A stretch of DNA of 64,000 nucleotides, from the NCBI GenBank assembly GCA_047459655.1, contig JAJREF010000001.1, positions 688,626 through 752,625 on the forward strand, given 5' to 3'. Below the pieces are notes generated by a model. It had not been told where the DNA came from and searched no databases. It was given only the letters and a program-made list of their open reading frames with translations. This document shows positions 1 through 14,753 of the stretch, piece by piece (within the stretch, counting starts at the first letter, position 1; every line of letters starts with the position of its first letter). The translations under genes were made by a program, and so were the position numbers. Source of the DNA: Rhabdochlamydiaceae bacterium (lineage in GTDB: Bacteria; Chlamydiota; Chlamydiia; Chlamydiales; Rhabdochlamydiaceae).

Positions 1-493
1 TTGCAATCGCTGTTTTGTAACCATCGGGGCTTGGTTTGGCTTCTTTGTAATCTTCTCTTGTAACCCAGAGAGGAATGGTCTGTAAAACAGGTTGATGCTT
101 TTTGATCTCTTCTACTTGTTCATACAAAGAATTGGTGACCACACACCTGCGCAGGTTATTTTTCTCCAATCCCTCTAGCAACGCCTCAACGCCTGGCATT
201 AAATTAATTTTTCCTGCATGTAGAAGTGTTTGATAGATATTTTTCTTTTCAGCATAGAGCACCTCCCACTTGGGCTCTTCTGCATACAACTTAGGGAATT
301 CTGCGTAGATCGCTTCCTTAAGTCCTGTTGATTTAAAATGGGCTGCCTCAAAAAAGCGTGGTAAACTCCAGTTCAGCTTATATCCTCTTTTTTTACACAT
401 TTCAACATACGCCAAAAAATGAAGCTCTTCTGTATTGACCAAAAGGCCATCAAAATCAAACAAGAAAAGAGTAAATTTATGTATCCATTTCAT
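1..493 (-). CDS. HAD family phosphatase (3' end outside window)
   Basis: Manual translation from ATG at 493 gives MKWIHKFTLFLFDFDGLLVNTEELHF (HAD motif I DxDG); KPSPDGY near window start; ATG overlaps the S46 stop. Confidence 0.85.
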   Translation of the reverse strand, partial: MKWIHKFTLFLFDFDGLLVNTEELHFLAYVEMCKKRGYKLNWSLPRFFEAAHFKSTGLKEAIYAEFPKLYAEEPKWEVLYAEKKNIYQTLLHAGKINLMPGVEALLEGLEKNNLRRCVVTNSLYEQVEEIKKHQPVLQTIPLWVTREDYKEAKPSPDGYKTAIA

Positions 494-2538
494 TTTTTTG
501 ACACCCGAATCTCTTTTACAAGAGCATCTGCTTGATAGATTTTATCCAGCGCTTCCATGATGCCTTGGGTATGGACGCTAATGGCTCTTCCTTGCTTATC
601 TTCAAAAGCATAATCCCAGATGAGAGAATGAATATTGCCATCAAAAATAAGGCCTACGACCTCTCCTTGCGCATTGATGACAGGACTTCCTGAATTGCCT
701 CCAATGATGTCATTGGTAGATACAAAATTAAAAGCAGAGCCGCTTGCAAGAAGAGGCCCACGGACTTTCCAACTGAGCGGAAGTTCATAAGGGGTTTTGG
801 ATTGGTGCTTTTCCGCACACTTAAAAACACCCCCGAGTGTTGTCATAGGGTTAATAAAAACGCCTTTCTCCTCATACCCCTTTAAAGAGCCAATAGACAG
901 CCTAAGCGTAAATGTCGCATCGGGATATAAACTTTCTCCATAGCGATCAAATAACATCTGCGCAATGGCAGCGTAGCTTTCTTTCTGCACGCTCTCCAGC
1001 AGATCTTCTCGCTTCTCTCTGACGGCTCTTGCATAAGGATCGAGAGCTTTAGCAAGCAAAATAAAGCCATCGGTTGCCTGATTGACTTCTTCAGGATTAT
1101 TGTATAGCTTTTGGCGGTATTCAAGATCTGTTAGCTGTGTAGAGGCTAAGAGCTCTTCCGCTCTTTTGGCAGGCGTCTTTCCTCCCATTGCAAGGACTAC
1201 AGCTGGATGCTCCTTGCCTAATTTAAGTAAAAGGTTGTTTAAATTATTGGTCAGCAGCATGAGCTCTAAATTTTTGTACACAGGCTCTGTTGAAAAAAGC
1301 CTGAGTTCAAGAGCTGCAAGCTGATGATCTGCATACTCTTTCAATCTCTCTCCGCTTGGTTTTCCTCTTTCCTTTTCTAACCGCACAAGGTGCTTGGCCC
1401 ACGTGTAAAGCTTGCAGTATTGAGCCCCATATCCCTCTAACATCACGTAAGAGATCTGATCCCCTTTAAAATCTGCAAGAGCGGTTTTTAATTTTGCCCA
1501 AGGAAGATAACGCTCAGATGCTACATCTCCGTAGAGTGCTTGCTCCTTTTTTCTTTTCTCTGCAATGATCGGTGCTGCCTTCAGCGCTTTCTCTATCCCG
1601 TTGTACACTTTAAAAGCATTCTCATAGGAAAATAATGGATCGAGCGCGATCCGTTTATTCTCTGGGCTTTCGCTAGAGAACTTCTTCAAAGAGACGATTT
1701 TTTCTTTTAGGAAACTAAGTAGAAGTGGGAGCTCTTCTTGCTGAAAAAATTGGACATGGTCTGCTGTGAGCATCCTTTCTGTTCTTCCGGGGTGACCTGC
1801 CACAAAAAGTGGCTCAAGAGCCTTGGGCCCCGAGGCACTCCATTTTAAGTAATGCTCTGGATGAACAGGCTGGTCATTTTCATAGACTCGAAAAAAACAG
1901 ACATCGAGGTTATAGCGAGGGTATTCAAAATTGTCGGCGTCTCCACCAAAAAACGCGATGTTCTTTTCAGGTGCCATCACTAGCCGCACATCGGTAAATC
2001 GCTTGTAGAGATAGAGGTGGTATTTAGCTCCTTGATACAATGTGACAACTTCGGGTTGCAGACCTGTTTTTTCTTTTGCACTATTTGCAATATCTGCACA
2101 GGCTTGCTTGTGTATCTTTTCTTTTTCTGCAGCTGTCATGCCATCTTTCACATCTTTATTGACGTCTTTTGTGATATCTTGAATAGAAATCAAGCTCTCG
2201 ACATACATATTAGGACACTTCAATTCTTGCTCAAAACTTTTTGCAAGAAAGCCCTTCTCCATAAGATCTGTCTCTTCTGTCGATAAATTATAAATTGCTT
2301 TAGACCCGACATGGTGATTGGTCATAATAAGACCTTGAGAAGAGACAAAAGACCCCGATCCCCCCAAACTAATCCTCACGCACGCTTGCTGCACATGCTG
2401 TGCCCAGTCTGGACTTAACTTAACGCCATACTCTTGCTCTATCTTTTCTACCGGCAGCATGTTAAAGGGCCACATCCCCTCTTCTGCTCCTACGCAGCAG
2501 CACACACATAAAAACAGACCCAACCATATCCTTTTCAT
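490..2538 (-). CDS. S46 family dipeptidyl peptidase (DPP7/DPP11-like), secreted
   Basis: Signal peptide then EEGMWP, TNHHV, NFEYPR, YPDATFTLRLS, DIIGGNSGSPV motifs. Confidence 0.93.
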   Translation of the reverse strand: MKRIWLGLFLCVCCCVGAEEGMWPFNMLPVEKIEQEYGVKLSPDWAQHVQQACVRISLGGSGSFVSSQGLIMTNHHVGSKAIYNLSTEETDLMEKGFLAKSFEQELKCPNMYVESLISIQDITKDVNKDVKDGMTAAEKEKIHKQACADIANSAKEKTGLQPEVVTLYQGAKYHLYLYKRFTDVRLVMAPEKNIAFFGGDADNFEYPRYNLDVCFFRVYENDQPVHPEHYLKWSASGPKALEPLFVAGHPGRTERMLTADHVQFFQQEELPLLLSFLKEKIVSLKKFSSESPENKRIALDPLFSYENAFKVYNGIEKALKAAPIIAEKRKKEQALYGDVASERYLPWAKLKTALADFKGDQISYVMLEGYGAQYCKLYTWAKHLVRLEKERGKPSGERLKEYADHQLAALELRLFSTEPVYKNLELMLLTNNLNNLLLKLGKEHPAVVLAMGGKTPAKRAEELLASTQLTDLEYRQKLYNNPEEVNQATDGFILLAKALDPYARAVREKREDLLESVQKESYAAIAQMLFDRYGESLYPDATFTLRLSIGSLKGYEEKGVFINPMTTLGGVFKCAEKHQSKTPYELPLSWKVRGPLLASGSAFNFVSTNDIIGGNSGSPVINAQGEVVGLIFDGNIHSLIWDYAFEDKQGRAISVHTQGIMEALDKIYQADALVKEIRVSKK

Positions 2539-2886
2539 CCCATCTCCCGTGTGATCCAACCCATCATGCAAAATCCTTGCAATCTCGTCAAAAAGTAAAT
2601 AATAGACAACTCTTTGAGTTGTTAATTTACGGCATCAATCCTGTTGTTGATTGCACATTTCTAAGAGATTCTTCAGGAAGGGCCCATCAGATGCAAGTTC
2701 CCTTTGAAGGTTTTCGCTCTGCTAAGCCCATCATATTTACTCGTTAATCTGCAGATAAAAAGATATTTTTGTCTTTGAAAAACTCAGACTATTAATTATG
2801 AATGCTTTAACCTCGACCAAAAATCGATCGATCGTAAAATAGTCACGACTAAAAGACGATCGATCGTAAAACGGTCAAAAAATCTA

Positions 2887-4113
2887 TTAGGATTCGCTAG
2901 TTACAACAACCTTTTTCTCTTTGGCAAGAAGAATGAAAAAGCCACAAGTGCCGATAGCAAGTGCAATCGGGACAACGGATATTCCATATTTCAGCGCTTC
3001 AGACATCTGAGGTCCACCTAAAAGATTAATCACTCCACCCATGGTTGTGTGGAAAGCATAGCCAAAAATCATGATGATCATGTTGGCAATCGCAGTTGCA
3101 AGTCCAGCTACGTGCGCCGGAACATATGTTGACACTTTATAGATGGTCAGAATTTGATAGGCAGAGCAGACTCCGACAAGGATAAAGCTCAAGCTAATCA
3201 TACTCGCTGGCAGCTGAAAGGATAACAGGAGCACAAAGCTTGCAACCATTGCAAGACCTGCCCCAATAATCGTCCCCAAATAACTCCCTGTCTTATCAGC
3301 CACAATGCTCAGTACAGGCCCACCAAAACACATCCCAATAAAGATCATTGAAGGTAAACTAGCTGCTAGCGTGCCTTCGTAGTTATACACCTGTTTTAAA
3401 AAGGCTGTTCCCCATACATCCGCAAAGCCTTCAAGCGGTCCTACCATAAGCCCTGCAAAAATACAGGTCCATATGACTCTAGAATTACATAGCACGGTCT
3501 TGATATCAGAAAAGACAGGCGTTTCAGGAGGCGCCTTCATATCGGGCACAATCCAATAAGTGAGCAACGCTAAAGCAACACCTGCACAAGCAAATATTTG
3601 AACTACCATTTGATAACCCAACATCTCCCGCATAAAGCTCACAGGCCCCCCGCCATAGATCGCTCCAATCAGCCCGATCGTCACAGAAAGACTCAGCATA
3701 CGTGTAAAGCGCTTCTCATCAAACGTCATACGAACAATTTTAAAAACGCCTAAGATCGCAGCCGAAGAACCGATACCTACAAGCACCCTTCCTAAAATCG
3801 GATAGCCCCAGTGTGTTGCAAAAGCAAGGGGCAATATGCCAATCACCGTCAGTAAAATACAACCTGTCATGACTTTTCTAGGGCCGTACTTATCTAACAT
3901 GATTCCTATGGGCAAATGGATCAATGAATAACCTATATAATATACGCCAGAAAACTGTCCAAAGGTGGCCGCATCTATATGGAATTGCTGCATGATGTCA
4001 GTCAGCATGATATTGGGCATCACCCTTAGAATATATTGGTAGGCGTAGAATATAGAAGCGACGATCCACACCATCCATACAGCTAATCGGGTTTTGGGAA
4101 CAGAACCTTTCAT
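2887..4113 (-). CDS. MFS transporter
   Basis: About 12 TM segments, motif A GIMLDKYGPRKV. Confidence 0.9.
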   Translation of the reverse strand: MKGSVPKTRLAVWMVWIVASIFYAYQYILRVMPNIMLTDIMQQFHIDAATFGQFSGVYYIGYSLIHLPIGIMLDKYGPRKVMTGCILLTVIGILPLAFATHWGYPILGRVLVGIGSSAAILGVFKIVRMTFDEKRFTRMLSLSVTIGLIGAIYGGGPVSFMREMLGYQMVVQIFACAGVALALLTYWIVPDMKAPPETPVFSDIKTVLCNSRVIWTCIFAGLMVGPLEGFADVWGTAFLKQVYNYEGTLAASLPSMIFIGMCFGGPVLSIVADKTGSYLGTIIGAGLAMVASFVLLLSFQLPASMISLSFILVGVCSAYQILTIYKVSTYVPAHVAGLATAIANMIIMIFGYAFHTTMGGVINLLGGPQMSEALKYGISVVPIALAIGTCGFFILLAKEKKVVVTSES

Positions 4114-4266
4114 ATAGTCAATCCATTTTTAAAATAAAGTTCGCCAATAGAACACATGCTTTCGTCATAAAACGGGCTGTTTTCTCTCGGAGAGGACATA
4201 GTCTACCCTATTTGAAAATTAAGACTCAAGAGCTATCAAAATAAAAAATAATTTTTACATATCCCT

Positions 4267-4953
4267 TTACTCTTTTCGAAAAATACAGTTTAAAACAGAT
4301 CGGGAATACTCCTTTCCATACATAGGGCTTTTCGACTGTTTCTCCTCTGCTTCTACAAGATGCAGAGTATCTGAAAATTCCTCTATAAGCTCATCCAATG
4401 AATATAGAAAAGAGGGTATTTGAGAGTGGGGATCGATGATGAGCTTGGAAGCAAAGTCAGGCGAAGTAGTCAGCAGGGGCCCATAAAAGCCATCATGGAT
4501 CGAAGCCAAAGAGACAAAATAATAGCCTCCGGGCTTCAGCGCTTGCGCAAGCTCTGCTCTATAAAGTTTTTGAGCCTTCTTATCTACGATATGTTTATAG
4601 CAAAAAATATCAACCGCTATATCCAAAGAATCACTACTAATAGGCCACTTTGCAGCCGCATTCTGCCCATAAGCAGAGAGAGGCAAGTGCCTTTTTTTAG
4701 CTTCTTCATTGATAAGATCCGCATTTTCCTGGAGAAGATCAAGGGCTGTAACAGTAAAGCCCTCTTTTACAAGATAAAAGCTGTTTCTTCCCTGGCCACA
4801 TCCAATGTCTGCAGCATAGCCTGGCTTTAAGTTTCTTCTCTGATACCAAGCCATAAACTCTACTAATGCTTGCGTAGGATCCTTTCTAAAAGAAGAGGGA
4901 ATCCCTTTTCTTTGATACTCTTCCGACCATACTGTGATTAACGATTCATTCAT
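4267..4953 (-). CDS. class I SAM-dependent methyltransferase (TehB-like)
   Basis: DIGCGQGRNS motif I, LKPGG. Confidence 0.85.
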   Translation of the reverse strand: MNESLITVWSEEYQRKGIPSSFRKDPTQALVEFMAWYQRRNLKPGYAADIGCGQGRNSFYLVKEGFTVTALDLLQENADLINEEAKKRHLPLSAYGQNAAAKWPISSDSLDIAVDIFCYKHIVDKKAQKLYRAELAQALKPGGYYFVSLASIHDGFYGPLLTTSPDFASKLIIDPHSQIPSFLYSLDELIEEFSDTLHLVEAEEKQSKSPMYGKEYSRSVLNCIFRKE

Positions 4954-5270
4954 TTGACCTCTCTTACAATTTCCATACAAATTTCTGGAAGCTGTGTTTC
5001 TATACAGTTCTTTAATTCTCGGATAGCTTCCTGGATATCAGGAGGAAAATCAGGATTAATCGCCTCATCTTTTGCAGGCCACGCAGCAGCTCTTGTGGCT
5101 TCATCAGGCCAGCGGGAATAAGCAATCCACATCCCCTCTTTTGTTTTGTGCAATATTGAACCCAAAGCCCCTTTTTCTTTTACAAAATACGTCGCTACTT
5201 TTTTCCAATAGTCTTGGTACGCTGTTTCAAGACCTGCTTTAATAAACCCGCGATAAACCACAGTAAACAT
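4950..5270 (-). CDS. antibiotic biosynthesis monooxygenase (ABM)-like protein
   Basis: 106 aa, GALGSILH...WIAYSRWPD pattern of dimeric alpha/beta-barrel proteins. Confidence 0.6.
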   Translation of the reverse strand: MFTVVYRGFIKAGLETAYQDYWKKVATYFVKEKGALGSILHKTKEGMWIAYSRWPDEATRAAAWPAKDEAINPDFPPDIQEAIRELKNCIETQLPEICMEIVREVK

Positions 5271-5279
5271 TGCTTTCTC

Positions 5280-6204
5280 CTAGATCACAATATGTGCTCT
5301 TGCAATCCCTTCCATCACCTTTATCTCCGCAAGATTTTCTTGTTCTAATTCCGCTAGATAGGCTTGCATAGACGTTTTAGTAAGGACATATGAAACAAGA
5401 TGGTCAGGAATTTGATTAACTTTCATTATTTTGGCAGTTATCTCTTCCAAAGAGTGGGGGTGTTGTTTGAGCATTGCAATTAACATGGCCTTGATCTCCA
5501 AAATCCGCTTTTCATGTTTGTCTATGAGAAGAGATAAGTCAGCCACCCTTCCTCCATGGTAAATAATCGCATCATCTAAAGAAGGAAGCAAAGCCTGCAG
5601 TTTTTTAAATGAGCGCAAGGCGTCCCCGATAAATGTATAATACAAGACTGGATATTTGCTGCAGGTATCTTCCCCAAAAATAGCATCCCCACAATAGAGC
5701 ACATTATCAGGTGTTTTGATGGCAATCATCCCACGGGTATGCCCTGGAAGGGTTATAATGTCAAAAGACTCCGTGCCTATATTAATCTTTTGGTCCTGAT
5801 AAGGAGCAATGATATCTGTCACTTTAGAAGCCTGCTGAGGCGCTAGGGGCTTACATGTTTTGAGAGCTTCAAATGCTTGGGCACCTCCACAAAAACAGGT
5901 CGGGATCATTAAAGGGTCCTCAATAAAAGCTCTCTCTGCTTCTGTGCTAAAGATCTTTATCTGGGGATATTTTTGTTGAAAAAATGCATTCCCCACAATG
6001 ATCTCCATGACAATGAGTGTTGATGATCGCAGTCAATTGCGCATTGAATTGCACAAGAGATTTATCGATCTCTTTTGCAACATCTTTGCTGATACCACTG
6101 TCCAGAAGAACAGCCTGGCTATTTTTGATGTAGACTCCTATAGAGAAAATCCCATCGCAGAAATAGCTATTGCCTTTAACTCGAATGAAATTGATTTTTG
6201 CCAT
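5280..6204 (-). CDS. MBL-fold metallo-hydrolase, frameshift near 5990
   Basis: INTHCHGDHCG in ORF 5947..6204; PGHT, GDA and HGG in ORF 5280..6008; break at a G/A homopolymer. Confidence 0.85.
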
Positions 6205-6207
6205 AGG

Positions 6208-6690
6208 TTATCGACTCATCTCGACAAACTCTCCATTTGTCATTTTTTGTATCTGGCTGGAATGTAACTGAAAAACCGCAAAGGGCGTACCAGCAGCTGC
6301 CCATAGACATTCATAGTTCTTCAAAGTCGGATCAATTAATGTCCTAATTTTTTCAAGATGGCCCACAGGTGGCACTCCCCCAATTGCAAAACCTACCTTT
6401 TCTTTAACAAATTTAGCATCTGCCTTAATCAGCTGAAGACCTGTAGCATCTTCAATTTTTCCAATATCAACCTGGTAAGCGCCTGAAGCGATTACTAGAA
6501 TTGGCAGGCTAGACGCTTTATCGATAAAAATGAGCGATTTTGCAATTTGCGCTACACTGCATCCAATGGCTCTTGCAGCCTCTTCTGCTGTTCTGGTTGA
6601 ATCAGGAAGTTCTTTTACAGCATAAGAAAATCCATTCTCCACCAAAAAATCTTGCACTTTTTTTGCACTGTCTGGAAGTTGCTTATTCAT
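6208..6690 (-). CDS. YbaK/EbsC aminoacyl-tRNA deacylase family protein
   Basis: TRTAEEAA, IAKSLIF, GFAIGGVPPVGH, WAAAGTP. Confidence 0.92.
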   Translation of the reverse strand: MNKQLPDSAKKVQDFLVENGFSYAVKELPDSTRTAEEAARAIGCSVAQIAKSLIFIDKASSLPILVIASGAYQVDIGKIEDATGLQLIKADAKFVKEKVGFAIGGVPPVGHLEKIRTLIDPTLKNYECLWAAAGTPFAVFQLHSSQIQKMTNGEFVEMSR

Positions 6691-6847
6691 CGTTTAATTT
6701 CCATTCTGCATTTTTATAGTCGTTGATATGCCAATCAGAAGCACCTCTGGAGGCTCCAAAACCAAGACACATGTGAGCAAGAGCGTTCACACAAACACCC
6801 CCTTCTATTTGTTTGTTCATTACAACTACCAATTTATTCTCAAACAT
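6683..6847 (-). pseudogene. truncated DUF2000-like protein (N-terminal third only)
   Basis: MFENKLVVVMNK...NALAHMCLGFG resembles the DUF2000 N-terminus; stops after 54 aa, overlapping the ybaK start. Confidence 0.55.
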
Positions 6848-6848
6848 T

Positions 6849-8330
6849 TCAGCCTCCTTGAGCAAGATTAATTTCTGTTGAAAAACAGTGCACTGCCGAA
6901 GCTAATGCTTTGGCGCGGTATATTCCTTTTTTCTTAGAAAATTGCACTTTGACAACCCCAGGTCTCTCTATAAAATGTCCTTGTTCTACCCGAAAGCTAT
7001 GACTCCCTTTTTGTAACAGCCCAAAAGTATCGACATACGCTACAAGCCCTCCTAGCACAGACCCCGTGAAGGGATCTTCAGATATCCCTACCAAGGGCGC
7101 AAAACAGCGCATATGAAATTGATTTTTTCGATCAATAGGCTCTGAGCATATGAGGCAAAGCACCACAATGTCATGCTGCTTAGAAAAGTGAGTCAAAGCC
7201 TTCAAATCACATTCGATTTTTTTTAAATCTGCAAGTGATTTTATGCAAATAAATAAATCTTTATTTGTCTCTTCATACATAACAGGAAAAGCCTTATCCA
7301 CTAAATGCAAATCAAATCCTGCAGCTTTTGCCACCTCTTCATGAAGGATATTTGATTTTTTTAACCTGATAGAAGGTGTTTCGTAAGCTATTTTTATTTT
7401 TCCTTCCTTATCTACTGCAACTTCCATCTTGAGAATGCCCGAAAGCGTCTCCACATGAAATACATATTTATGTGCTCTTTGAATGCCAAATTTTTTCTCT
7501 TTAGCAATCATATAGAGAGCTCCCACCGTAGAGTGACCACAAAAATTAATCTCATGACCTGTAGGGGTAAAGTAACGCAACCGAAAGTCTGCTTTCTGAC
7601 TAGGCAAAACAAAAGCTGTTTCCGACAAATTGAGTTCTCGAGTGATTTTACGCATGGTGGCCTCATCTAGTTCTTCGGCTTCCAGCACAACTCCTGCAGG
7701 ATTTCCTCCAAAATTTTTATCTGTGAAAGCATCAACTCGATGAATTTGAATCTGCCGGAATGTACTGATTGTCTTTAGATAATTATAAATAGTTGCTCTT
7801 GATAGCTGCATTTTCGCAGCAATGTAGATAGAAGCTTCCTTAAACTCAAAAAGCTTTTTCCCATATAGAAGAGAGATCAGCTCCCGTTTTTGCCTACCTG
7901 TTGCAGACTGGATTGTTACCTGTTGTATTTTGAGGTAACTACCTATCAATTGATCGATATTTTCCTGCCACTCATTTACATCTTTGTCTGCTTGCTGGAA
8001 GTGTCTCTGAAGCATCAAATCAAGGTGATCTTTTAAATGTTGTAGCTGGGTTGTATCATAGCGGAAACGTAAAAAACAGCCGGTGTTACCCTCCTCACCC
8101 CTCATAAAATAAACCACCTGCTTAACCTGTTTACCATTAGACAGAACTTTATGGGAAACACCCTCTCTCATTAAAGACTCCAACTCTACCACCTCCTCTT
8201 CTCTAGAAGAAGAAAAGGGATTCAGAATTTCAATGATTTTTCCTTTATAGCTAAACAAAGATATCTCAAGCAGTGGGTAGAAAAAATTCACTAATACCTG
8301 GGCTAGCTGCTTTAACTTCTCGACTTGCAC
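6849..8330 (-). CDS. YheO-like PAS/HTH regulator fused to a PhzF-family isomerase
   Basis: HTH IAAKMQLSRATIYNYL, then VDAFTDKNFGGNPAG, LSETAF, FCGHST, EDPFTGS. Confidence 0.88.
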   Translation of the reverse strand: MQVEKLKQLAQVLVNFFYPLLEISLFSYKGKIIEILNPFSSSREEEVVELESLMREGVSHKVLSNGKQVKQVVYFMRGEEGNTGCFLRFRYDTTQLQHLKDHLDLMLQRHFQQADKDVNEWQENIDQLIGSYLKIQQVTIQSATGRQKRELISLLYGKKLFEFKEASIYIAAKMQLSRATIYNYLKTISTFRQIQIHRVDAFTDKNFGGNPAGVVLEAEELDEATMRKITRELNLSETAFVLPSQKADFRLRYFTPTGHEINFCGHSTVGALYMIAKEKKFGIQRAHKYVFHVETLSGILKMEVAVDKEGKIKIAYETPSIRLKKSNILHEEVAKAAGFDLHLVDKAFPVMYEETNKDLFICIKSLADLKKIECDLKALTHFSKQHDIVVLCLICSEPIDRKNQFHMRCFAPLVGISEDPFTGSVLGGLVAYVDTFGLLQKGSHSFRVEQGHFIERPGVVKVQFSKKKGIYRAKALASAVHCFSTEINLAQGG

Positions 8331-8486
8331 GGGAATCTCCTGAAAAAATAAAATAATATTCTAAATTGTAATTTTATTCTAGATAAATAACTGCAAATAA
8401 AATTTTTACAACACAACGGGTTATAGGTTAGAATAAACCTCTTGAACAATCACCGCTTTTCCATTCAAATAGGAGCTAGATCCATC

Positions 8487-10073
8487 TTAAGGAGCCTCTG
8501 GACAATTGCTTTGTCGGAGATTGCTGATCAATTTTTCGAAGACGACGATTTTGGGAAACGCAGCTAACATGCAGAATGTTAGCGAGTTTGAAAAATCTAG
8601 TGTTCGCAAAAATTGGCAGCAAGATTCGGCAAATGACCTGTCCAGAGGTTTCTTAACAAACTGCGGAATGAATTGAGAAGAATCACTTTGATAAATAGAG
8701 GAAACTACAACAGCCCCAGCTTTTACCCACTTTAGAATATAAGCAGGCCCGAATAAATCTTGAGGAAGGATGATTTCATTGCCCTCCATTAGGTAATGTT
8801 GAACCTCATATCCTGCTCTTTCTTGGAGAAAGAGAGCCGCACATTCGATAATAGCCTTTTTTGTAACCTCCTTTCCGTTTGTTTTGTGTCTTAGAAGGAG
8901 CATGACATTATCTAGGCTGAATATACCTTGCATCCTCAATTGAATTTCTCGATCCCAACAAGCAGCCAAAAGAGCACCCCGAAAATAATCGATATCCCAA
9001 ACTTTATTATCCGCTTTAAATTCTTTTGCCACTTGAGAATTGGAATATTTTTTTGCTGGAGAAGTAAAATATTTATGAATGATCGCATTCATTTTCTCTA
9101 CATACTCCTCTTGAGTAATCACCCCAGCTGATTGATTAAGTTTATGGGTATAATACTCTGTAAAACCCTCAGTAAACCAAAATAACTCGCTCTTTGGATC
9201 TGCTGGCGGCATTTTAATCCCATTCCACGTGTGAAAATGTTCATGGCTGATGGTATGCACCATTTCCTGTGGGTGCTGCATCCAGTAATCATTCGCGCAA
9301 ATAGAAAAAGAGTCGTAAAGCCCTCTTCCCATACAAACTTCTACAGGCCCTAAGGGTAAAACAGTGATGAGGTAGTGAGGGAAAGAAAAATCATTCCAAA
9401 AGGAACGTTGGGCCTAAATGATGGCTTCCGCCTTTTCCAAAAATTGCTGAGCAAAGGGCAGAAATTGTTTTCTGGTCATGAGAGTGATAGAAGGGTCGAC
9501 ACTACTCTGAAAGATTTGAAAGTCACCTCCTACAAAAACAGTGGTGAGCAATCCGTCTAAGGTTTTGTGAACAATTTGCTCTTGCAATCCAATACCAAAA
9601 CTATTGCCAAAGACCCAATCAGCAGGCCAACCTTCCCAAGACAAGGTGACGCTCACCTTTTCAGCGGAAGGTAGATCAGGACACACCAATAAGTGATCCC
9701 CATAACAATGGAAATAAGATGCATCTCCTTGGGGATACATAAACCAGTCAAGCGCATCTGAAGAAAGCGATCGGATACGATAAGAGATATCAATAGAAGT
9801 CTCCACAACTGCTACACTTACCAAGCCTTCTAGGTTAGGCAATAGCGGTTGGTTTTGGAGATTAAAAATAATGGGTCCTGCCTCAGGTAATGCGATTTTA
9901 AGAAGCACCTCTGGCTTTTCCACATGTTCAATATGTAAGTCTACTTCACATAAAAAGGGTTGAAGGGCAGGACGGATGGTGTAATGCAGCCCTAAAGACT
10001 CTGCTTTAAGGAGCGACATAAAAAGACAAAAGAAAAGTAAAAATCGAAAACTCATGGGGCTAGTATAATTCAA
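8487..10073 (-). CDS. M61-like zinc metallopeptidase, frameshift near 9420, C-terminus supplied by an inserted repeat
   Basis: N-terminal half with signal peptide (9414..10073); HEHFHTWN...WFTEGFTEYY...YFRG in 8487..9332. Confidence 0.8.
8491..8652. mobile_element. 162-bp palindromic MITE-like element, copy 1
   Basis: Ends GGAGCCTCTGGACAA / CTGTCCAGAGGTTTC; TTAA on both sides (8487-8490, 8653-8656); central GCTAACAT-GCAGA-ATGTTAGC hairpin; near-identical to 58057..58219. Confidence 0.9.
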
Positions 10074-10162
10074 ATCGAGAACTTTCCCAAGTTAATAGAA
10101 GTTTTGACTGGGAGAAATTAGAAGAATCGAGTAGGATGCTTCCAATTTTTTGGAGGCTAACT

Positions 10163-10882
10163 ATGAGAGCATTCACACTGCTGGTTCTTCTCGTTGTAAA
10201 TCTAACTGTAAATGCTAACAAACAAGCAATTGACCAGCTTGTTTATGAAATCCGCAATCCCCAAACCGAGCCTTCTTTGTTCCGCCGGGCCTTAGAAAAA
10301 ATTGGCGAATATCTAGCTTTGAATATCTTAGAAGAATTGAGCACAAAAGAAACAACCATTCGAACTCTTACCGACACCGAAGCTACCCATCAACTTCTCG
10401 ATGAAACTCCTGTTTTAGTGACCATTCTTCGAGCAGGACTTCCCCTGAATGCAGGCGTACATAAGGTGTTTCCAAAAGCAGAAGTTGGATTCCTTGCGAT
10501 GTCAAGAAATGAAGAAACATTAAAAGCGCAATTAGACTACGTAGCGCTCCCCTGCTTAAAAGATCGGACCGTTATCCTTGCTGACACTATGCTAGCTACA
10601 GGAGGATCGATACTCGATGCTATCCAAATCGTCAAGCAATATGAACCCAGACAAATCTTTATCATTGCTGCGATTGCCTCAGAACCCGGCATAAGACGCC
10701 TCTTAGACTATGATTCTACTATCAAAATTTTTACAGCCGCTGTCGATCCCTCTCTAAATCATAAGGGATACATCATTCCGGGACTAGGTGATGCTGGAGA
10801 TCGATCTTATGGTAAAAAACATCCAGCAGAAAGCCTACTAAAATGTTCGCAAGAGACTCTTCCCGACAAATCAGATATCTAA
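10163..10882 (+). CDS. upp: uracil phosphoribosyltransferase
   Basis: ILRAG, DTMLATGGS, GYIIPGLGDAGDR; GGAGG RBS at 10152. Confidence 0.93.
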   Translation: MRAFTLLVLLVVNLTVNANKQAIDQLVYEIRNPQTEPSLFRRALEKIGEYLALNILEELSTKETTIRTLTDTEATHQLLDETPVLVTILRAGLPLNAGVHKVFPKAEVGFLAMSRNEETLKAQLDYVALPCLKDRTVILADTMLATGGSILDAIQIVKQYEPRQIFIIAAIASEPGIRRLLDYDSTIKIFTAAVDPSLNHKGYIIPGLGDAGDRSYGKKHPAESLLKCSQETLPDKSDI

Positions 10883-10915: not shown

Positions 10916-10943
10916 ACGATCGTGTTGGGGTGTATTTGCTTAA

Positions 10944-11008
10944 GGAACCTCTGGACAAGCCATTTGCCAGATCTTGGTGCCAATTTTTGCGAATACTAGA
11001 TTTTTCGA
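10944..11008. mobile_element. half copy of the palindromic MITE, cut by the group II intron
   Basis: TTAA(10940-10943)+GGAACCTCTGGACAAG...GAATACTAGATTTTTCGA aligns with the right arm of copies 1 and 2 and stops exactly at the intron 3' end. Confidence 0.88.
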
Positions 11009-12940
11009 ATCGCGTAGGAGGGAGCCTTTAGGCTCCCGTCCTCGCACACCACCGTACGTACGGGACCGTATACGGCGGTTCCTGATCACTATGACCCAGC
11101 TCGCACTATGTTCATCATAGGTGTGTATCCCATTGCTTCAATAACCCTATTTGATACCCCTTTGTGCATGCAGTAGGTCTTTGCCATTCTCCATGGCCCT
11201 TTACTACTATATGCATGCTTTCTGGCGGTGCTATCTTTAAGTCCAAGTTCTTCTAGTCGTTTATGTCGCGTTCTAGGTTGCTTCCACTGTCGCCAGAGGA
11301 TAGACCTTATCTTGCGCCTTATCCATCCATCTAATTTCTCAAAGATTCCTCGTTCATCCGCTATGCCAAAGTAATTGGCCCATCCTCTTGTAAGTGGCAT
11401 GAGTTGTTTTCGGATGCTATTCGTTAACTTGCTGCCTCTCATCTTTTTAGTGAGTCCTTTTACTTTGTCTTTAAGGCGTTTCACTCGGCTTTCGTGAACT
11501 ACAATCCGATGCGGCTGTTTTTCCGCTTTGAAGGTAAACCCTAAGAACGTGCGCTTCCATGGGTTATCCACAGCACTTTTCTGCTCATTGACTTTGAGTT
11601 TGAGCTTCTTAGTCAGATATCTGACTGCTGCTTCCATTACGCGTTTGCCTGCTCTTTCTGTTTTAACATAGATATTGCAGTCATCAGCATATCTTGAAAA
11701 TCGCAGTTTTCTCTTCTCTAATTCTCTATCAAAGTCGTCTAGCATGATGTTGGATAGTAATGGTGAGAGGGGCCCGCCTTGCGGCGTGCCCTCTTCTGTT
11801 ACTTTTACAAGTCCATCCTCCATGACTCCTGCTTGGAGATATCTCCTGATCAGAAGGAGGATTTTCTTGTCCTTCACTCGTCTTGCTACTCTTGCCATCA
11901 ACATGTCATGGTTGACTTTATCGAAGAACTTTTCCAGGTCGATATCTACAACCCATGTGCATCCTTCTTGGATGTATGCTTGGGCTTGTAGCACGGCTTG
12001 CTGAGCGCTTCGATTGGGTCTAAATCCATAGCTATGTTGGGAGAATGTTGGATCGAATACAACGACTAGCTCTTGATGTATGGCCTGCTGGATGATCCTA
12101 TCCATGACGGTGGGGATTCCCAATTGTCGAACCCCTTTTCCATCTGGTTTTGGTATTTCCACCCGTCTTACGGGGCTTGGCAAGTATTTTCCATCAAGGA
12201 TGTCTTGTTTGATCTTGGGCCATTTCTTATGCATGACCTCTTTGATCTCTTCTGTGGTGATACCATCTATTCCAGGTGCTCCTTTGTTACGTATTACCGC
12301 TTCAATGGCTTTCTGGATATTGCTATCCTTCGTGACTCCTTCTATCGTTGCGATAGGGGCGTCATAAGGATCGCTAGGTAGGAGAGATGTTTTCCTTTCT
12401 GCCTTGTCAACTGTCGCACTTTTCAGAAGCTGTGAGGGACTCTCTCCCGGGTCTTCTGTTTGAGCTTTGGATTTTTCCTCTTTTCTGCGATTATTTGTTG
12501 TCATAGAAGTTTGGTTCTCTCCTTTGTTTTCATGTTCGGACCTTCAGTGTCTTAAAAAAAACACCTACTACGTCGTCTGCTGACTGCTGTACCGTTCGCG
12601 TCGTCTCTCCGAGACACCGCTAGCGCTGTCGTTCCCCTCTTTTGTCGGGTACTAGTCAGGCGTGGATACAGCTCTCACCGGGTAATTCATCATACTTTCC
12701 TACTAGCCTGTCGCATCTACATGAACCCTTCCGAGCAAGTATAGGACTTTGGATTCCAGTGCATCCTTATCCTAGGGTTACTGCCTCATATGCGCTTCCT
12801 ATTCGTCGGGCCAGCATTTTTGTATACGGCTTTCTTCAGATCCCGCTTCACGGCGGGCACCCTTGCCTTCTCTAATGGTTCTCCTTGCTAGAGTCCATAG
12901 AGGACTTTCACCTCCTAGTGTGATGACATACCGGTCGCAC
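11009..12940 (-). mobile_element. group II intron, class IIC
   Basis: 5' GTGCG at 12940; domain V GAACCGCCGTATACGGTCCCGTACGTACGGTGGTGTG; domain VI ending CCTACGCGAT at 11009; inserted just after a stem-loop; RT has no En domain. Confidence 0.93.
11089..12504 (-). CDS. ltrA: group II intron reverse transcriptase/maturase
   Basis: NKGAPGIDG, RQLGIPTVMDR, GTPQGGPLSPLLSNI, RYADD, X domain GWANYF; no HNH. Confidence 0.96.
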   Translation of the reverse strand: MTTNNRRKEEKSKAQTEDPGESPSQLLKSATVDKAERKTSLLPSDPYDAPIATIEGVTKDSNIQKAIEAVIRNKGAPGIDGITTEEIKEVMHKKWPKIKQDILDGKYLPSPVRRVEIPKPDGKGVRQLGIPTVMDRIIQQAIHQELVVVFDPTFSQHSYGFRPNRSAQQAVLQAQAYIQEGCTWVVDIDLEKFFDKVNHDMLMARVARRVKDKKILLLIRRYLQAGVMEDGLVKVTEEGTPQGGPLSPLLSNIMLDDFDRELEKRKLRFSRYADDCNIYVKTERAGKRVMEAAVRYLTKKLKLKVNEQKSAVDNPWKRTFLGFTFKAEKQPHRIVVHESRVKRLKDKVKGLTKKMRGSKLTNSIRKQLMPLTRGWANYFGIADERGIFEKLDGWIRRKIRSILWRQWKQPRTRHKRLEELGLKDSTARKHAYSSKGPWRMAKTYCMHKGVSNRVIEAMGYTPMMNIVRAGS

Positions 12941-13157
12941 ACAGAAGCCAAACTCTTGGCTTCTTTCATAGGCAAAAAAAAGCTTCCCCGTCGGGGAAGC
13001 TTTTGTTTTGCCGATGACCGGCTCCGGGCTACCCGCCGGTTCGTGTCCTGCATGACACTTCACTTCGAGTCCGGACAGAAGCCAAACTCTTGGCTTCTTT
13101 CATAGGCAAAAAAAAAGCTTCCCCGTCTGGGGAAGCCTTTGTTTTGCCGATGACCGG
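12941..13157 (-). repeat. tandem ~81-bp repeat of tRNA 3' end + terminator + hairpin (12941..13021 and 13075..13157)
   Basis: Both copies read CCGGTCATCGGCA-AAACAAA-GCTTCCCC..GGGGAAGC-T8/9-GCCTATGA-A-AGAAGCCAA GAGT TTGGCTTCT-GT; 53-bp spacer. Confidence 0.92.
13107..13137 (-). terminator. intrinsic terminator of tRNA-Leu(CAA)
   Basis: GCTTCCCC-AGAC-GGGGAAGC followed by T9. Confidence 0.85.
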
Positions 13158-13227
13158 ACTCGAACCAGCACCTTATTGCTAAGAGTAGATTTTGAGTCTA
13201 CCGCGTCTGCCATTTCGCCACATCGGC
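13145..13227 (-). tRNA. tRNA-Leu(CAA)
   Basis: GCCGATG acceptor, anticodon arm GTAGA-CTCAAAA-TCTAC, long variable arm, GGTTCGAGTCC. Confidence 0.95.
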
Positions 13228-13244
13228 ATGATAGACGTGGCGGT

Positions 13245-13289: not shown

Positions 13290-14753
13290 TGTTAGCCCAA
13301 AATGATAATGTCCTCTTTCTGCTAAATAGAAATGTCCTCTTTTGAAGATACTGACCTCATTCAAATTTGTTTTTGAAAGGAGGTGAGAGTGAAGGAGTTG
13401 ATAACTATGAGCAGAAGAGAATTAGAAAGAGTTGAAATGATGCGCAATTTAAAAAGAAAAAGCTTTTCCCAGATAGAAGTGGGACAACGTCTGGGGATAA
13501 CAGCCAGACAAGTTAGACGTTTAAAACAAGCTTACGAACTGCATGGAGAAGCTGGCTTAGTTTCCAAAAAGAGAGGGCAGCCTAGTAATCGCAGGTTAAC
13601 AGAAGCTTTAGATCACAAGTCCTAAAGCTGATTTCCGCTCATTATGCAGATTATGGCCCTACGTTAGCTCAAGAAAAGTTAGAGGAAAAACATAAGCTTA
13701 CATTGTCTATAGAGACGCTTAGGAAATGGATGATAGAAGAAAATATTTGGTCTCCTAAAAAAGCTAAAAAGGCAGTTATCCACCCGATGAGACCAAGAAG
13801 GAGTCAGTATGGAGATCTTGTACAAATAGACGGATCTCCCCATGACTGGTTTGAAAATAGAGGACCCAGGTGTACCCTTTTAGTATACATTGATGATGCA
13901 ACTAGTAGACTTGTCGAGCTGTTTTTTCTCTTGGTGAAACAACAGAATCTTATTTTAAAGCGACAAAAAGGTATCTAAAGAGATGTGGAAAACCACTTGC
14001 TTTCTACAGCGATAAATATGGAGTTTTTAGAGTCAACCACAAAGAAGCTGTATCTGGTAATGGAGTGACAGAGTTTGGAAGAGTCCTAAAAAAACTCGAT
14101 ATCAAGCTCATTTGTGCCAATACACCCCAGGCAAAAGGAAGAGTTGAAAAAGCCAATCAAACATTGCAAGATCGTTTAGTCAAGGAGATGAGAGAAAAAA
14201 ATATTTCAACTATTGAAAAGGCAAATGAATGGATTCCCGAGTTCATAGAGAAGTATAACAAAAAATTTGCCGTAGCTCCTAGAAACGCAGAAGATGCTCA
14301 TCGAGCTTTAAAACCAGAAGAGAACTTAGAAGAGATTTTCAGTTACCAGGAAATCCGATGTCTCTCTAAAAACTTAAGCTTCCAATACAAAAACAGTCTT
14401 TATCAGATCGATAGTGAAAGATCATCATACACTCTAAGGAAAGCAAAAGTCATGCTTCTAGAAGATCTCAATGGACGGGTAAGAGTGCTGTATAAGGGCA
14501 AGGAGTTAAAATACAAGATATATGGGGAAGAACCGCAAGGGAAAATTGTGATGTCCAAAGAAATAGATTTAGCACTTAATTGGATAAACAAAAAACCTCA
14601 AAAACCTTCAAGGAGTCACCCGTGGAGATAAGAGAAGAGCTTTTGAAAATGGGTATTTTAGATAAAAAACGGACAAGTCCAATGAAGATCAGAACATCCA
14701 AAGAGGACATTTCTAAATTGGAGAAAAGCGGACATTTCTATTTTGCGTTGACA
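13290..14753 (+). mobile_element. IS1202-family (ISNCY) insertion sequence, 1464 bp, 16-bp target duplication
   Basis: TGT...ACA ends; imperfect IRs with two AATGTCC sub-repeats per end; DR TAGACCTCTTTCGAAA at 13274-13289 and 14754-14769. Confidence 0.9.
13383..14631 (+). CDS. ISNCY/IS1202-type DDE transposase, two frameshifts
   Basis: N-terminal HTH, LVQIDGSPHDWFE, IDDATS, YSDKY, PQAKGRVEKANQTLQDRL across three ORF fragments. Confidence 0.9.

Follow-up and report, generated by a model that had tools for sequence, protein, structure and literature searches.

An intact group IIC intron between halves of two different repeats in a Rhabdochlamydiaceae genome, probably joined by local deletion

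The stretch of Rhabdochlamydiaceae DNA analysed here (64,000 nt, the window) carries an intact group IIC intron with unlike exons, which probably arose through a local deletion between two intron copies lying in the same orientation. A truncated unit of a tRNA-linked repeat serves as the 5' exon, and the right arm of a MITE, here called MITE-A, serves as the 3' exon (Table 1). A reading of the letters alone, made before this analysis (the sequence-only reading), had reported this mismatch, and both the boundaries and other copies of the repeats confirm it. The assembly containing the window, G000 (contigs cited as C1, C2 and so on), is a metagenome bin with 82% completeness and 5.8% contamination; other G numbers denote further genomes, L numbers denote loci and X1-X4 denote sequencing runs. 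Relatives of the intron were collected by pattern scans that returned 55 metagenome and 43 genome loci, and 28 of the 43 genome loci bearing an intron 5' end belong to Chlamydiae. Together with further loci these gave 109 intron 5' ends. Distinct ends of at least 330 nt numbered 69, and both the EBS1 loop and the exon could be read in 56 of them.

Table 1. Features of the intron locus and its surroundings (window positions)
Feature	Position	Strand	Remarks
HAD-type hydrolase gene	2..493	-	synteny marker after tRNA-Leu(CAA) in some relatives
upp	10136..10882	+	convergent with the intron
MITE-A right arm (3' exon)	10940..11008	-	left arm and central hairpin absent at the locus
Group IIC intron	11009..12940	-	1932 nt; 5' G at 12940, 3' end at 11009
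Domains V and VI	11009..11080	-	DV of 32 nt with CGC triad; DVI with bulged A
RT/maturase encoded by the intron	11089..12504	-	471 aa, open frame, YADD present
EBS3 (G)	12717..12717	-	pairs C or T at exon +1
EBS1 (ACUG)	12757..12760	-	loop of predicted ID3 hairpin, directly past delta C
Unit 2 of the tRNA-linked repeat (5' exon)	12941..13009	-	truncated; remainder of the unit absent
5' exon hairpin	12943..12964	-	9-bp stem, 2-nt gap (GT) before the intron
Unit 1 of the tRNA-linked repeat	13010..13143	-	complete; 134-bp period
tRNA-Leu(CAA)	13144..13228	-	

Judged from its sequence the intron belongs to group IIC (class C), and the earlier assignment to this class is borne out by the RT matches, a domain V with a CGC triad, the EBS/IBS pairing and the upstream hairpin. 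The RT/maturase scores 421 bits against TIGR04416 (cut-off 300), and its best match in the PDB is the GsI-IIC RT (6AR1, E 9e-140, residues 52-459 of 471); the E. rectale protein (7UIM) is also matched at E 2e-109, whereas LtrA is far weaker at 7e-42. These matches place the protein in the class C grouping of endonuclease-free RTs, and an endonuclease domain does not fit into its 471 residues. Rfam models of intron domains I-IV match at 12686-12857 (RF02001, 123 bits) and at 12539-12621 (RF01998), and the DV-DVI model RF00029 matches at 11009-11080 with 40.7 bits, obtained with relaxed filters and just over the gathering score. The shortened DV with its CGC triad agrees with the definition of the class in a passage of PMC1702495, covariation gives an EBS1-IBS1 helix of 3-4 bp with a single EBS3-IBS3 pair, and a stem-loop stands immediately upstream of the junction both at the 5' exon and in MITE-A. 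The intron reads as complete with an intact RT, whose open frame keeps the YADD motif; a copy search found it to be the sole ORF-bearing copy in G000. Contigs of run X1 leave gaps within the intron, which carry no weight either way.

The RNP of IIC introns recognises a hairpin in single-stranded DNA together with 3-4 nt of IBS1. The sequence-only reading had proposed ACUG at 12757-12760 as EBS1, and both a partial fold of domain I, which places it in the ID3 loop, and covariation in 56 relatives confirm this choice; the position after delta C is also the layout described for the E. rectale structure (in part of PMC10190682). Exon positions -1 to -4 are Watson-Crick to EBS1 nucleotides 1-4 in 50, 47, 42 and 29 of the 56 relatives (permutation, ~16), and the column identified by covariation as EBS3, a G in the window intron, pairs with exon +1 in 31 of 36 relatives when wobble is allowed (permutation expects 18), these being descriptive counts rather than a formal test because the rows are related. 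Three of four EBS1 pairs form at each of the two window targets, CTGT/C in the tRNA-linked unit and GAGT/T in MITE-A (the slash marks the junction), matching the earlier observation that each 5' exon end differs from CAGT by one base. Both targets consist of a hairpin, GT and then C or T, and the GT of both occupies the two best-kept EBS1-pairing positions, so that both repeat sites are predicted to be valid targets for EBS1 ACUG with EBS3 G. Across the clade, EBS1 differs between genomes, and 54 of 82 distinct 5' exons contain a stem of at least 7 bp against a shuffled expectation of 4. G000 itself offers 214 sites at which a perfect 8-bp hairpin ends 0-5 nt ahead of GT/Y, 75 of them in MITE-A.

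The repeat that supplies the 5' exon follows tRNA-Leu(CAA) directly. Its complete unit 1 contains two hairpins and an inverted copy of the tRNA T-arm, followed by the tRNA 3' end copied in direct orientation, and the unit folds as DNA into a three-way junction closed by the inverted T-arm copy (z -10.6). The intron-free copy of the target that had been reported 134 bp from the occupied site is present in unit 1 of the window (junction 13075/13074), but the X1 contig that bridges the 5' junction runs from the intron into the tRNA-proximal unit and skips the second 134-bp unit, reflecting either variation in unit number or graph collapse; X1 thus gives the unoccupied copy no corroboration. In G000 the unit occurs only at the window locus, and the 11-nt 3' half of its target site is confined to the tRNA, unit 1 and a single unrelated position. 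Homologues were detected in 53 of 128 host-family genomes, often in tandem arrays, and two successive units are therefore normal for this family; a tRNA gene was present at 20 of the 24 loci that were fetched. No window-type intron occurred in the tRNA-repeat loci of relatives (0 of 26, namely the 24 loci and two longer regions), and no Rfam family matched the unit at gathering level. Among these relatives (L206-L229) the arrays reach seven units (L228), and the inverted arm tracks the T-arm of the local tRNA, which is tRNA-Leu(CAA) in the window and a different tRNA-Leu in L036. By description, the units resemble the tRNA-linked repeats (TLR) of E. coli in their tandem arrangement after a tRNA, their inverted and direct 3'-end copies and their hairpins, the sequence family of the window unit being the one seen in the host family.

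MITE-A, the source of the 3' exon, is short, gene-less, bounded by terminal inverted repeats and dispersed in many copies, as expected of a MITE. Its modal length is 170 bp including both terminal TTAA, and the 162 bp given earlier hold when these are left out. G000 contains 95 non-overlapping matches, 66 of them full-length, making up 0.9% of the genome; the ends are TA/TTAA, common to tandem copies, and none of seven longer candidates proved to be an autonomous element with MITE-A ends. The distribution is patchy, with matches in 2 of 128 other family genomes and absence from both congeners. Intact copies confirm the earlier placement of the junction, since the 3' exon starts exactly 4 nt past their central 8-bp hairpin, and GT/Y is read by 61 of the 68 copies that span the junction. 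The abundance of MITE-A alone would draw many insertions, and the intron would often land there without specificity. Elsewhere in the window, the last codons of an ORF (8487-9332) are provided by an intact MITE-A (8486-8660) that lies over its 3' end, and at G000:C2:181787-182055 another element, MITE-B, is nested in MITE-A, apparently at a duplicated TA.

To place the two flanks of the intron relative to each other, the DNA after tRNA-Leu(CAA) was followed in 28 relatives. In six it maps either to the gene at the start of the window (five), which we take to be a HAD-type hydrolase from its DxDG motif, or to the neighbour of that gene (one); the remaining 22 have other genes or too little DNA, and the HAD link is absent. 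In G000 the HAD gene lies 12.6 kb beyond tRNA-Leu(CAA) in the orientation seen in the linked relatives. This kept order puts both flanks of the intron in a single neighbourhood and speaks against a misjoin of distant pieces as well as against an inversion over a long range. The 12.6-kb stretch (window 490-10882, with upp, a PhzF-like gene and others) is missing there in the relatives that retain the HAD link and thus looks like an island behind the tRNA. The congeners did not yield the deleted segment: the G001 contig stops just past tRNA-Leu, G002 has a plain terminator after tRNA-Leu and no upp match, and the genes next to upp differ. On the other side of the tRNA, an ISNCY transposase (window ~13320-14631) that has ten near-identical copies in G000 is represented here by short split ORFs, and one-base insertions in X1 at 13606 and 13921 indicate that the ORF breaks may be sequencing errors.

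We propose that one intron copy entered unit 2 of the tRNA-linked repeat and that another, in the same orientation, entered a MITE-A deeper in the island that follows tRNA-Leu. The two 1.9-kb introns would then have undergone homologous recombination, with loss of the left arm of MITE-A, the terminal part of unit 2 and all DNA in between. This two-copy deletion fits best: it accounts for a 5' boundary that falls precisely at a valid target and for the disappearance of the inner half of each repeat. For IIC-attC introns, a published model already has two IIC copies recombine so that unlike exons are brought together (cited in a passage of PMC7923331), and a section of PMC3522654 discusses ectopic recombination with group II intron copies as its substrates. 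The two-copy step is one that we infer, the second copy, the reciprocal junction, the deleted segment and a pre-deletion allele not having been found. The recombination put forward in the sequence-only reading is retained as the likeliest origin of the mismatched exons. Its further suggestion that the intron drives rearrangement shrinks to one probable local deletion: gene order is kept, and a search of G000 found neither the reciprocal copy nor a second ORF-bearing copy.

A different history could be that of a lone insertion into MITE-A, with the 5' junction re-made at the upstream hairpin-GT either by the RNP (which might use an alternative 5' exon, switch templates or join ends) or through a deletion at the GT common to both sites. 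There is only one ORF-bearing copy today, the 26 other tRNA-repeat loci are free of the intron, and in vitro B.h.I1 accepts an alternative 5' exon at distant stem-loop/IBS1 sites (according to part of PMC1702495). That use by B.h.I1, however, is RNA splicing and not DNA integration, and a random deletion would have had to end at both intron nucleotide 1 and a valid hairpin-GT guided by a microhomology of only 2 nt; we regard a lone insertion as unlikely. An inversion or translocation between distant copies, with the reciprocal junction outside the incomplete assembly, would be in keeping with the 82% completeness of G000 and with the different neighbours of upp in G001 and G008. The preserved order and orientation from tRNA-Leu to HAD across the intron and its single-copy depth speak against such an event, which we consider very improbable.

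The unlike exons could instead be an assembly artefact: a pair of neighbouring copies, or the copies of two strains, all with matched exons, may have been merged into a chimera. G000 does bear signs of strain mixture, with contig ends that overlap other contigs at 95-99% identity and the tRNA-His region of C1 repeated in C4; moreover, L075 and L115 share an intron and 5' exon and differ in the 3' exon, as collapsed repeats would give, and none of the listed X1 contigs bridges the 3' junction. Against this, an X1 contig does span the 5' junction, covering 102 letters of the intron and over 200 on the exon side, and none of four X1 loose ends shows a matched junction. In the same run the intron has a depth of 4.4-5.7 compared with 5.0-5.3 for its flanks and 47.8 for the ten-copy IS used as calibration, consistent with a single copy, although contig depth is not copy number and this is moderate evidence from a run that may be the source of the window assembly and hence not independent. 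Finally, ten near-identical IS copies were resolved within contigs of 224-753 kb, which suggests reads longer than the intron. Taken together, we judge an assembly chimera to have a small chance of being correct. Contigs of X2 and X4 were mostly pieces of 90-95% identity and provided no usable intron junction.

Two identical ORF-less IIC introns of 691 nt accompany the window intron in G000, at C3:40903-41593 (L028) and on C5 from 319182 (L016). Their EBS1 is GUAG and their 5' exons end in CTAC, a perfect IBS1. Compared with the window intron they are 81% identical in domain I and 97% identical in DV-DVI, which hints at sequence exchange between the two types. The copy in L028 lies between matched exons of a second palindrome family, of which intact unoccupied copies exist, and that in L016 is located in a one-off palindrome. 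Since the window RT is the only tblastn match in G000, it may move the 691-nt introns in trans.

The earlier proposal that the intron homes into dispersed palindromic repeats had called for another copy within a MITE hairpin, and a candidate was found in X3, a run from a separate study. There, an intron of ~96% identity, with no listed difference in EBS1, is joined at its 5' end to the MITE-A left arm by an 89-nt contig (depth 9.4) and at its 3' end to the right arm (28 nt) by a 430-nt contig, the junctions being on separate contigs and the 28 exon letters falling below the 31-letter bridging rule. A second 3' loose end leads into unrelated sequence. The two arms suggest a single matched MITE-A insertion in X3 and uphold homing into such repeats; the further notion of a special MITE parasite was not sustained. 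Long palindromes recur among the relatives: 13 of 31 distinct full-length relatives (three from G000, one of these palindrome-resident) have both exons at the centre of a long inverted repeat, a score reached by 0 of 930 mismatched exon pairs. The other 18 lie outside long palindromes, several of them after terminator-like hairpins. The palindromes around the 13 residents are mutually unrelated in sequence, and the residents are dispersed over the RNA tree (midpoint root, without a formal clade test). As these residents are scattered and 18 of 31 relatives lie elsewhere, we interpret the behaviour as ordinary hairpin seeking that exploits abundant repeats. A dedicated MITE-targeting lineage is disfavoured by the same two observations and by the congener G002, in which a 99%-identical intron 3' end adjoins a non-MITE exon in a genome with no MITE-A match.

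In three of five other genomes checked, the occupied palindrome is itself a high-copy repeat. The targets in G061 and G062 have 63 and 80 matches, respectively, with intact unoccupied copies at 5 of 5 fetched loci in each, and the target in G064 is a high-copy repeat with unoccupied copies; in that genome the intron lies behind one repeat in 7 of 8 scan loci, a count that assembly may have inflated since six are at contig ends. Not all palindrome targets are dispersed repeats: G065 has a single copy of the palindrome around L120, and in G063 the one around L119 is low-copy. Copies shorter than 1300 nt make up 8 of the 13 palindrome residents and 4 of the 18 others. At L055, L133/L134 and L103, introns lie directly at or a few bases past the 3' end of another group II intron, in tandem. 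At L057, L125 and L016 (5' exon ~G000:C5 319140-319181) the other strand of the target hairpin closely resembles IIC domain VI (compare L014), as if these introns had inserted into antisense DVI remnants. In L075 compared with L115, and in L077, the 5' exon is repeat-like and the 3' exon is unrelated to it, on short contigs that may be assembly chimeras.

Comparison with known systems indicates that the class and the mechanism are known and that the target variant is new, alongside one probable local deletion. The window intron shares its RT type, CGC triad, short DV and EBS3 with B.h.I1, GsI-IIC and the E. rectale intron. Like terminator-type IIC introns it has a 4-nt EBS1 past delta C and a hairpin in place of IBS2, but its targets are repeat-borne hairpins and its exons come from two repeats; two terminator-like T-run hairpins adjoining the tRNA are not used. 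IIC introns have been described as sitting after terminators 'or other inverted repeats' (Toor 2006, a passage of PMC1702495), and part of a 2015 review names terminators and attC as their specificities (PMC4424553). The IIC-attC introns of integrons are similar in using a hairpin within a multi-copy palindromic DNA element, in still hitting other hairpins and in having a proposed two-copy recombination, and differ in being described as a lineage of their own with the consensus TTGT/T (sections of PMC7923331). In the window clade, by contrast, palindrome residents are scattered and EBS1 is variable, and we rejected membership of the IIC-attC lineage because the targets are not the attC bottom strand TTGT/T. 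Group II introns that target IS elements (E.c.I4, c-Ha.de.I1) likewise live in another mobile element and have a fixed IS site (passages of PMC3522654), whereas the window intron uses a hairpin in a gene-less repeat. A full-text search covering part of the literature returned no paper that places IIC introns in MITEs or tRNA-linked repeats; key IIC studies outside it may list repeat-borne sites.

These observations can be joined, tentatively and with less confidence than we place in the local deletion, in a broader proposal. IIC introns of this mostly chlamydial clade may adjust their 4-nt EBS1 so as to match the central hairpin of any palindromic repeat that the host carries in large numbers, and the repeats would form a self-renewing pool of targets. 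The autonomous intron with EBS1 ACUG would use MITE-A, and its non-autonomous derivatives, the 691-nt introns with EBS1 GUAG, served in trans by the same RT, would use the second palindrome family. Copies borne by repeats might then delete the DNA between them, and MITEs that have been filled by an intron and retain intact ends could carry it onward.

The biochemistry itself seems ordinary. EBS1/IBS1 and EBS3 covariation drawn from natural variants can guide the design of hairpin targets, and the locus would show, in nature, the recombination between two copies that has been proposed for IIC-attC introns. The known set of IIC targets, terminators and attC sites, is widened to dispersed palindromic and tRNA-linked repeats.
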